Shown here: piece after piece, positions 38,759 to 38,872 of the stretch
Numbering within the stretch: position 1 is the first letter of the stretch
Layout of the letters: every line of letters starts with the position of its first letter
Source of the DNA: an uncultured Candidatus Saccharibacteria bacterium
GTDB taxonomy: Bacteria > Patescibacteriota > Minisyncoccia > Portnoybacterales > UBA2143
Assembly (NCBI GenBank): GCA_964596615.1
Contig: CAZQUN010000007.1
Coordinates: 1 to 54,066 of the forward strand
Direction of reading: 5' to 3'
Length of the DNA: 54,066 bases
Notes under the pieces: generated by a model
The model's input: only the letters and a program-made list of their open reading frames with translations
Databases searched by the model: none
Told to the model about the DNA's origin: nothing
Translations under genes and position numbers: made by a program

Positions 38759-38872
38759 TTATCTGTCGAGCCAAGGCGTTCCAGCGCCAGCCATCGTAAC
38801 TACAAACGCAGTTAATATCGCTGAATTTCTCATTAGCTTATTAGTTAAAACTCTTTTGATTAGTTCTTTCAT
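38759..38872 (-). CDS. Unannotated 37-aa peptide MKELIKRVLTNKLMRNSAILTAFVVTMAGAGTPWLDR; candidate ComX-like pheromone precursor
   Basis: Translated by hand. GGAG SD 8 nt upstream, same strand as the flanking genes, single Trp fourth from the C-terminus. Confidence 0.75.
   Translation of the reverse strand: MKELIKRVLTNKLMRNSAILTAFVVTMAGAGTPWLDR

Follow-up and report, generated by a model that had tools for sequence, protein, structure and literature searches.

A conserved 37-codon gene beside a sensor kinase gene in a Patescibacteria contig: a probable precursor of a tryptophan-prenylated peptide

Background

The stretch of DNA examined here, referred to as the window, is 54,066 nucleotides (nt) of contig 7 (CAZQUN010000007.1), part of a 724-kb genome in 15 contigs from an uncultured Candidatus Saccharibacteria bacterium (GCA_964596615.1). 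On the minus strand, the window carries a hidden gene of 37 codons (38759..38872) that is the centre of a four-gene cassette with the order response regulator, peptide, sensor kinase and two-domain enzyme. The product is most likely, by analogy with characterised systems, a lipid-tagged peptide signal akin to the ComX pheromone of Bacillus. The candidate phyla radiation bacteria are ultra-small organisms with tiny genomes, most of them uncultured, and to our knowledge they are not known to use peptide signals.

All four genes of the cassette are on the minus strand. The first (40172..40855) encodes an OmpR-type response regulator, with Pfam matches to Response_reg (1e-28) and Trans_reg_C (2.7e-23). 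The peptide gene was recognised from its sequence, its conservation and the ratio of nonsynonymous to synonymous substitutions (dN/dS). The sensor histidine kinase (37310..38710; Pfam HATPase_c, 3.4e-25) has six predicted membrane helices joined by short loops, as read by eye from the sequence rather than computed, followed by the catalytic core. The last gene encodes a two-domain enzyme, p661 (35410..37323, within a 661-residue frame at 37395-35410), that was assigned from an AlphaFold2 model, Foldseek comparisons and sequence motifs.

The peptide reading frame

The open reading frame (ORF) begins with an ATG (38872-38870) and ends with a TAA stop codon (38761-38759). Its product, MKELIKRVLTNKLMRNSAILTAFVVTMAGAGTPWLDR, has a single tryptophan, the fourth residue from the end; the leader comprises approximately residues 1-29 and the core ends in G-T-P-W-L-D-R. 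The N-terminal region is basic and is followed by a hydrophobic stretch, with a 15-residue Kyte-Doolittle maximum of about 1.7 by hand count, and by small residues at positions -3 and -1 before T-P-W. A GGAG Shine-Dalgarno-like motif (38881..38884, minus strand) is separated from the ATG by an 8-nt spacer. The initial annotation had proposed both the ORF and this motif, and both were found where it placed them; it had also considered the motif rare in the window, and a crude first-ATG scan agreed, with a core motif (GGAG, GAGG or AGGA at -18 to -5) preceding 2 of 35 long ORFs. In the family described below, 20 of the 84 peptide genes have a core motif.

An in-frame ATG further upstream, at 38902, would give a 47-residue form, which found no match in a word-indexed protein search. 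This start was rejected: in nearly all loci the ATG of the family aligns with the first position of the peptide profile or with the residue before it, so that the start of the family corresponds to 38872. The window peptide had no Pfam or NCBIfam match at E ≤ 0.01, and Rfam models compared with the ORF and the hairpins gave no gathering-level match, only chance-level ones (E ≥ 0.14). Taken alone, without regard to conservation, the ORF is not significant against chance; when the 270-nt spacer was shuffled, 410 of 2000 shuffles contained an ORF of at least 37 residues.

Conservation of the peptide gene

The N-terminal 240 residues of the kinase, its sensor domain, have 707 relatives at E ≤ 0.001, and the relatives of the kinase carry the NCBI label Patescibacteria. 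When 400 genomes of the class were sampled, 7 contained the sensor domain, and all seven have an ORF of 35-38 residues with the same pattern directly upstream of the kinase gene. A scan of genome contigs with an alignment of the full-length kinase was dominated by a generic ATPase motif and returned only unrelated kinases; the metagenome scan was carried out with a sensor-only alignment, and the best 80 of the 183 relatives' loci were used. A peptide profile built from eight seeds was then compared with all 12,148 stop-to-stop ORFs of at least 20 residues in the six frames of 88 loci. The seeds had been chosen using the Pro-Trp pattern, so this step was not blind, while the profile search was blind to position.

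The profile matched an ORF directly upstream of the kinase gene, on the same strand, in 84 of the 88 loci and in 76 of the 80 non-seed metagenome loci, where 69 of the 76 matches had E < 0.001. Elsewhere in the 12,148 ORFs of these loci there was no match below E 0.9. The gap between peptide and kinase genes is approximately 40-190 nt in the 84 loci. Of the four loci without a match, two lie where a contig ends, L210 lacks an ORF and L153 has only a 10-residue ORF.

The ORFs encode 75 distinct peptides of 32-43 residues. Leu9, Arg15 and Trp34 are invariant, the tryptophan being present in all 75, and it is preceded by Pro33 in 71 and followed by 1-9 variable residues; Lys12 is found in 67. The best conserved part is the N-terminal half (L9, K12, R15), in which the leader motif reads M-x-K-[LIV]-I-K-x-[IVF]-L-T-x-K-x-x-R, while alignment columns 32-34 are mostly S/V/T, A/V and G/A. 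Close pairs of genes have dN/dS values of 0.03-0.24. Nucleotide identity between pairs, taken for the three codon positions in turn, is 0.53/0.65/0.36, lowest at the third. Over all 146 pairs (proportion of synonymous differences 0.05-0.6) the median dN/dS is 0.56, but distant pairs are saturated, with some values above 1, and selection can be read from the close pairs only.

A profile of 72 peptides retrieved 405 cluster representatives at E ≤ 0.001 from 1.84 billion proteins, mostly of 34-40 residues. Among the best 150 of the 405, the tryptophan is located 1-7 residues from the end in all 150, is never the last residue, and is preceded by proline in 146, although these counts are partly circular because the search profile contains the tryptophan. 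There is no Pfam or NCBIfam model for the family, and this class of peptide is overlooked both by gene callers and by family libraries. One of the 72 peptides matched Pfam DUF7472 (E 0.034), which was rejected as a chance match.

Because its position, frame, start and sequence are conserved across loci, the ORF can be regarded, for practical purposes, as settled to be a real gene under purifying selection within a conserved four-gene cassette. The alternative, that it is a chance frame in a structured intergenic region, could draw on the frequency of such ORFs in the shuffled spacer and on the lack of a matching family model, yet it is refuted for practical purposes by the conservation in 84 of 88 loci, the low dN/dS and the 405 representatives. 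The initial annotation had held that the gene is real and tied to the kinase, and would have given it up had the ORF not been conserved in related loci; that comparison and the dN/dS analysis that it suggested both bore it out, and the Pro-Trp motif that it singled out proved to be the hallmark of the family.

Conservation of the cassette

A homologue of the response regulator lies upstream on the same strand in 60 of the 68 loci with at least 1100 nt of room. Downstream, 66 of the 67 loci with room have a homologue of the enzyme, either as the next gene after the kinase or joined to the C-terminus of the kinase. In five loci (L147, L157, L188, L189 and L202) kinase and enzyme form one protein of 999-1155 residues, and all five retain the upstream peptide gene. 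The fusion of a receptor-kinase to an enzyme of peptide-modifying type is unusual.

Locus L153 has a minimal cassette. The 10-residue ORF that takes the place of the peptide (MVNPYEPWAA, 2879-2911) has no leader, and the 313-residue enzyme (4383-5324), which starts at the kinase stop codon, consists of the prenyltransferase-fold domain only; a polyprenyl synthase gene is located upstream. The joint absence of the leader and of the N-terminal enzyme domain fits, as a single case, a model in which the leader would bind to the enzyme.

In the window, a gene for a polyprenyl diphosphate synthase, short-chain and IdsA/GGPPS-like (38981..40021, minus strand; Pfam 5.9e-47; NCBIfam IdsA 2.8e-47, below the cut-off), lies between the regulator and peptide genes. 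Homologues occur in 8 of the 88 loci, in 7 of them directly upstream of the peptide or kinase gene, and an isopentenyl diphosphate (IPP) isomerase cluster occurs in 8 loci, with five of five tested members above the NCBIfam cut-off. The polyprenyl synthase is likely a supplier of the prenyl donor, outside the universal core of the cassette. It was also considered as the analogue of ComQ and set aside, being found in 8 of 88 loci only, having motifs of the chain-elongation type and being the only such synthase of the genome. The polyprenyl synthases of the window and of loci L141, L153, L164 and L170 have D-D-x-x-N as second aspartate-rich motif, rather than the usual D-D-x-x-D.

The two-domain enzyme and its predicted complex with the peptide

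The enzyme probably starts at the ATG at 37323, judging from the point at which its homologues begin to align; residue numbers below refer to the 631-residue translation of 37305-35410. An AlphaFold2 model based on an alignment of 36 sequences had a mean pLDDT (predicted local distance difference test) of 91.7 and a predicted template modelling score of 0.85. In the model, residues 1-296 have a predicted class II terpene cyclase fold and residues 305-612 a predicted trans-isoprenyl diphosphate synthase (trans-IDS) fold. Residues 1-293 superimposed on the class II domain of drimenol synthase (9mhs) with Z 29.1 and a root mean square deviation (rmsd) of 2.5 Å over 272 aligned residues, and drimenol synthase was also found by a PDB profile match (1.9e-8), so the model and the profile agree on the alpha/alpha-barrel class II cyclase fold. 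The same domain matched MstE (Z 25.1) and squalene-hopene cyclases. The all-alpha trans-IDS fold of the C-terminal domain was found in the model: residues 305-612 matched a polyprenyl diphosphate synthase (4jyx) with Z 24.7 and rmsd 2.9 Å over 285 aligned residues, and the tryptophan prenyltransferase Ord1 (9v4h) was among the Foldseek matches (E 1.5e-4).

The first motif of the C-terminal domain, YDDFxD, has the two adjacent aspartates in 34 of the 36 homologues. In the second, Q-x-N-D-D-x-H-D-W, residues Q518, D521, H524, D525 and W526 are invariant and N520 is present in 35 of 36; the sequence of this motif would fit NDXXX as well as an intact DDXXD. In the N-terminal domain E121, G125, G126, P127 and Y128 are invariant. 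The acid motif of class II cyclases, PYPDDLDDT, is kept in 18 of the 36 homologues. The window enzyme reads P-D-N-L-S-A-T at this position and thus has no DxDD(T) motif; the motif is missing from the other 17 homologues as well, and from the forms with a shortened N-terminal domain.

A complex of peptide and enzyme was modelled with a score of 0.69 (0.69, 0.69 and 0.70 in three runs), while the best of three controls scored 0.01. Among solved complexes 116 of 157 come up to that mark, and among mismatched pairs 2 of 215; both counts apply only roughly, because custom alignments were used. At least 81% of the contacts were common to the runs, and the pLDDT of the partner was at least 69. The confident interface comprised peptide residues 1-29 and enzyme residues 107-126, 154-161, 527, 559-570 and 617-630, which include the invariant E121, G125, G126, F565 and W566. 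In the model, the conserved leader would therefore meet the invariant patch of the N-terminal domain and the F565-W566 region. The model supports binding of the leader to the enzyme and is in line with the division into leader and core made in the initial annotation, the best conserved half of the peptide being the part that is placed on the enzyme. A precursor of a ribosomal peptide natural product should combine a conserved leader, recognised by the modifying enzyme, with a short core that carries the modified residue; the family has the conserved leader, its recognition is supported by the model, and Trp34 would be the modified residue.

A simpler course, a plain version of the secreted signal envisaged in the initial annotation, would be that an unmodified peptide is exported through the Sec pathway and cut after the small residues A/V-G, before x-P-W, that a signal of 3-10 residues is sensed outside the cell by the kinase, and that the enzyme has an unrelated terpenoid function. 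The window peptide does resemble a Sec substrate in its basic N-region, hydrophobic stretch and small residues before T-P-W, and columns 32-34 of the family would suit the cleavage site. However, conservation is highest in the N-terminal part (L9, K12, R15), unlike the n-regions of Sec signals and as is typical of partner recognition. No 15-residue window with a Kyte-Doolittle mean of at least 1.0 is present in 12 of 74 distinct peptides, some of which have charged middles, so that the family as a whole is characterised by no Sec signal and by no membrane helix. With the enzyme present in 66 of 67 loci and the modelled complex scoring above its controls, we regard this course as very unlikely.

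Comparison with known systems

In the ComQXPA system of Bacillus subtilis and other Firmicutes, ComQ prenylates a tryptophan of ComX, ComP is the kinase and ComA the regulator. ComA belongs to a different regulator family from OmpR, whereas the regulator of the cassette is OmpR-type. The gene order, regulator-peptide-kinase-enzyme, is also different. The likeness lies in four adjacent genes on the same strand, for an enzyme that belongs to the isoprenyl diphosphate synthase superfamily, for a short peptide with a tryptophan as its one fixed feature, for a multi-helix membrane kinase and for a regulator (PMC4008528). ComX is variable apart from a tryptophan near the C-terminus, and the census of comQXPA loci places them in Firmicutes only; comX genes are identified as short ORFs that adjoin the genes for enzyme and kinase, or lie between them, and have a tryptophan within the last 5-10 residues (PMC4008528). 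The peptide gene of the cassette agrees with this description, since it is a small ORF beside the kinase gene in 84 of 88 loci, with tryptophan at position 34 of 37 in the window and in all 75 distinct peptides. ComX is longer (52-73 residues, as against 32-43 here), and none of 72 peptides matched PF05952 (ComX) at E ≤ 1. ComP carries PF07730 (PMC4008528), which a Pfam scan did not find in the window kinase. The ComQ family is defined by the motifs DDXXD and NDXXX (preprint 10.64898/2026.08.29.745113); the enzyme of the cassette has DDxxD as first motif and N-D at the second, which may also be read as an intact DDXXD. A glutamine just upstream of NDXXX belongs to the same description, and Q518 precedes N-D here. 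The enzyme differs from ComQ in its additional class II cyclase-fold domain and in the lack of a PF00348 match.

PalP-PalX-PalQ of Paenibacillus alvei, which was found by genome mining and an AlphaFold complex model, likewise groups genes for a histidine kinase, a precursor peptide and a trans-IDS-like tryptophan prenyltransferase (PMC10853753). PalX has a long leader of the NHLP type and a C-terminal tryptophan, and PalQ requires the tryptophan to be terminal (PMC13290415), whereas the tryptophan is terminal in none of the 150 best representatives and the leader constitutes a new family of 29 residues. PalQ is a single-domain enzyme. In the bifunctional maturases ChrPC and NctPC (Hubrich et al. 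2024, Chem 10:3224), as described in a review, a peptide tryptophan prenyltransferase, which in ChrPC is trans-IDS-like, is fused to a class II cyclase domain resembling MstE, and this domain cyclises the prenyl group after tryptophan prenylation (PMC13290415). In the enzyme described here, by contrast, the cyclase-fold domain is N-terminal, has the acid motif in 18 of 36 homologues only, with its loss in the window enzyme, and is predicted from the model to be part of the leader-binding site; the cassette also carries a kinase and a regulator. The ChrPC and NctPC families were compared through their description in a review (PMC13290415), and the present family may already have been listed among them. 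Outside Firmicutes, StheQ and StheX of Sphaerobacter thermophilus extend the ComQ-like kind to the Chloroflexi, with a ComQ-like enzyme beside a small ORF that has tryptophan second from the C-terminus (preprint 10.64898/2026.08.29.745113). StheX has 69 residues and StheQ a single domain, and no kinase-regulator pair is described in the available portion of the preprint (10.64898/2026.08.29.745113). In the literature available for searching, no paper was found that links candidate phyla radiation bacteria with precursor peptides, with prenylated peptides or with enzymes of the ComQ type.

The best reading of these comparisons is that the cassette would work like the ComQXPA and PalPXQ systems, yet by sequence its peptide and enzyme fall outside the ComX and ComQ families. 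The differences are in gene order, leader family, type of regulator, enzyme architecture and the kinase-enzyme fusions.

Proposed function

The sequence of events that we favour is as follows, 1) the conserved N-terminal leader would dock in the groove between the two domains of the enzyme, 2) the C-terminal domain, with its YDDFxD and Q-x-N-D-D-x-H-D-W motifs, would transfer a prenyl group from a diphosphate donor to Trp34 of the core, 3) the N-terminal class II cyclase domain could cyclise the prenyl chain in the half of the homologues that have PYPDDLDDT, a motif lost in the window enzyme, 4) the lipidated peptide, cut or uncut, would reach the membrane or the outside and be sensed by the membrane-embedded sensor of the kinase, 5) the kinase would signal through the OmpR-type regulator, and 6) owing to the stem-loop that follows its gene, expression of the peptide would be free to differ from that of the kinase and enzyme.

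That the enzyme prenylates the peptide on Trp34, whatever the fate of the product, is the best-supported mechanism and seems to us probable. The enzyme partner and the isoprenoid-supply genes point to a tryptophan-prenylated peptide rather than a plain secreted one, and tryptophan is the residue on which all peptide prenyltransferases of the trans-IDS-like type that have been characterised act, namely ComQ, PalQ and the ChrPC P domain (PMC13290415). The peptide would presumably be processed and exported, and gene adjacency and precedent suggest that the modified product serves as the ligand of the kinase. The full chain, from prenylation at Trp34 to sensing by the adjacent kinase, appears somewhat more credible than its negation.

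Several observations weigh against this interpretation, 1) the second motif of the enzyme may be an intact DDxHD, as in chain-elongating synthases, and is not obviously the metal-free pseudo-motif of ComQ and StheQ, 2) the Pfam model polyprenyl_synt (PF00348), which matches ComQ (PMC4008528), does not match the enzyme, 3) residues 30-37 of the peptide, including Trp34, were not confidently placed in the complex model, which does not predict their entry into the active site, 4) a membrane-helix-like stretch, a 15-residue window with a Kyte-Doolittle mean of at least 1.6, is present in 48 of 74 distinct peptides, 5) among the gene families that recur around the cassette in the metagenome and genome loci, there is no exporter and no leader protease, 6) the polyprenyl synthase gene beside the peptide gene may be a housekeeping gene, being the only PF00348 match in the genome, where a UppS gene lies elsewhere, and 7) kinase-enzyme fusions are not known from quorum-sensing systems and might indicate that the circuit is intracellular.

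Some of the same observations could be accounted for if the peptide were a membrane-associated adaptor or regulatory subunit, rather than a substrate, whose N-terminal helix holds the soluble enzyme. The hydrophobic half would then lie in the membrane beside the kinase helices, with Pro-Trp at the outer interface, in a circuit that senses the membrane or isoprenoids. Micro-proteins such as MgrB and SafA, which act with PhoQ, are precedents. The hydrophobic stretch found in 48 of 74 peptides and the basic residues that precede such a stretch would suit such a role, as would a modelled interface confined to residues 1-29 and silent on catalysis at the tryptophan, the absence of a conserved exporter or protease, and the five fusions, which place the enzyme at the membrane beside the kinase. 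We nevertheless consider an adaptor unlikely. The 12 peptides without a hydrophobic stretch keep the leader motif and the tryptophan, the peptide is kept in all five fusion loci, where a tether would be needless, one invariant tryptophan amid variable flanks is the pattern of a ComX-type substrate (PMC4008528), and the characterised peptide-acting enzymes of the same fold all prenylate tryptophan (PMC13290415).

Prenylation might also yield an antimicrobial or host-directed lipopeptide, which the two-component system would only regulate or protect against. The evidence for the modification is the same as for the signal; in addition, candidate phyla radiation bacteria are thought to live attached to hosts, and Hubrich and colleagues reportedly described in 2024 a product of one fused prenyltransferase-cyclase with modest anti-cyanobacterial activity. 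However, the tight adjacency of peptide and kinase genes (within about 190 nt in 84 loci) and the kinase-enzyme fusions go beyond what a generic regulator calls for, no immunity or export genes are conserved, and in ComQXPA and PalPXQ peptides of this sort come together with a kinase (PMC4008528; PMC10853753). A lipopeptide of this kind is, in our judgement, rather improbable.

For the prenylated signal, a more far-reaching form of the interpretation can be put forward tentatively, as plausible but short of probable. The degenerate class II cyclase domain would have become the leader-binding module, the invariant tryptophan would receive a linear or cyclised isoprenoid, and the six-helix kinase would report the product, either between cells or as an intracellular gauge of scavenged isoprenoid diphosphate, in a widespread and hitherto undescribed system of the candidate phyla radiation. 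If it operates between cells, it would be the first quorum-sensing-type peptide system of these bacteria. With a tryptophan-prenylated signal, ComX-type chemistry would reach well past Firmicutes and Chloroflexi, and ribosomal peptide biosynthesis would gain a leader family and an enzyme architecture that are both new, natural kinase-enzyme fusions included. Such a signal would also provide a testable handle on how episymbionts sense their neighbours or host-derived isoprenoids.

Stem-loops and the candidate promoter

A perfect 30-bp palindrome (38724..38753), described in the initial annotation and confirmed here, begins 5 nt past the peptide stop codon and ends 13 nt before the kinase ATG. 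Its best hairpin has a 13-bp stem, with four G-C pairs, and a 4-nt loop (-20.5 kcal/mol). The terminator scan flagged the plus strand only; on the coding strand only UUUU follows, and this U run lies in part within the stem. A strong stem-loop between peptide and kinase genes recurs in the family: in the 75 nt after the peptide stop codon the best hairpin reaches -15 kcal/mol or lower in 24 of 76 distinct loci, while the control regions gave 2 of 76 (within the kinase gene) and 0 of 74 (upstream of the peptide). The structure alone recurs, the hairpin sequences not being conserved between loci. The palindrome is a candidate attenuator or 3'-end stabiliser, and the recurrent stem-loop is consistent with the idea that expression of the peptide is uncoupled from that of the kinase. 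In locus L152 (2915-3000 region), the first bases of the hairpin that follows the peptide gene are AACUGGAUAC, ten bases shared with the stem in the window, although the two loci are not closest relatives.

The whole 311-nt spacer region folds better than its shuffles (z -3.4). An extended -10-like motif, TGATATAGT (38968..38976, minus strand), a consensus match only, from which, in the initial annotation, the peptide could receive a separate transcript, sits just past the stop codon of the upstream gene (38983-38981), and a promoter scan listed another promoter-like site on the minus strand at 38929-38901. A look through sequencing runs found no RNA run with this locus, and contigs from four DNA runs did not span the ORF. 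Between the stop codon of the polyprenyl synthase gene and the ribosome-binding site of the peptide gene there is a second stem-loop (38931-38952, minus strand), CTTGAGCT-CTTTTA-AGCTCAAG, followed by GGACCCAGGCCTGTTTT; Rfam gave no match here.

Neighbouring genes and other features

A gene for an S-adenosylmethionine (SAM) methyltransferase (40845-41552, minus strand), which is not among the neighbours that recur in the other loci, overlaps the response regulator gene at its start. Its matches to NCBIfam methyltransferases of peptides that are made by ribosomes and modified after translation (daptide-type, 3.8e-6) are weak and below the cut-off. Families that do recur in the flanks of the cassette are the IPP isomerase, SIMPL, a sigma factor, beta-lactamase-like proteins, YceG and others.

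In the 60 nearest relatives of the genome, only the catalytic domain of the kinase was matched; the sensor domain was not, and a direct search found no match to the peptide. Relatives of the sensor region that are 60-65% identical exist elsewhere. A 410-residue ORF, tyrosine-recombinase-like as read from its translation (41837-43069, plus strand), adjoins the cassette. The patchy distribution of the sensor and the recombinase-like neighbour suggest that the cassette may have been acquired horizontally.

Beyond the recombinase-like ORF are a tRNA-Ile gene (44093-44167) and the rRNA genes (45265-49033). The 23S rRNA match (45265-49033, plus strand) spans 3769 bases, as against 2925 positions in the model, so the gene carries one or more insertions. 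At the other end of the window, an Rfam match to LOOT RNA (11974-12096, minus strand) scored 85.3 bits, with a gathering score of 46.4.

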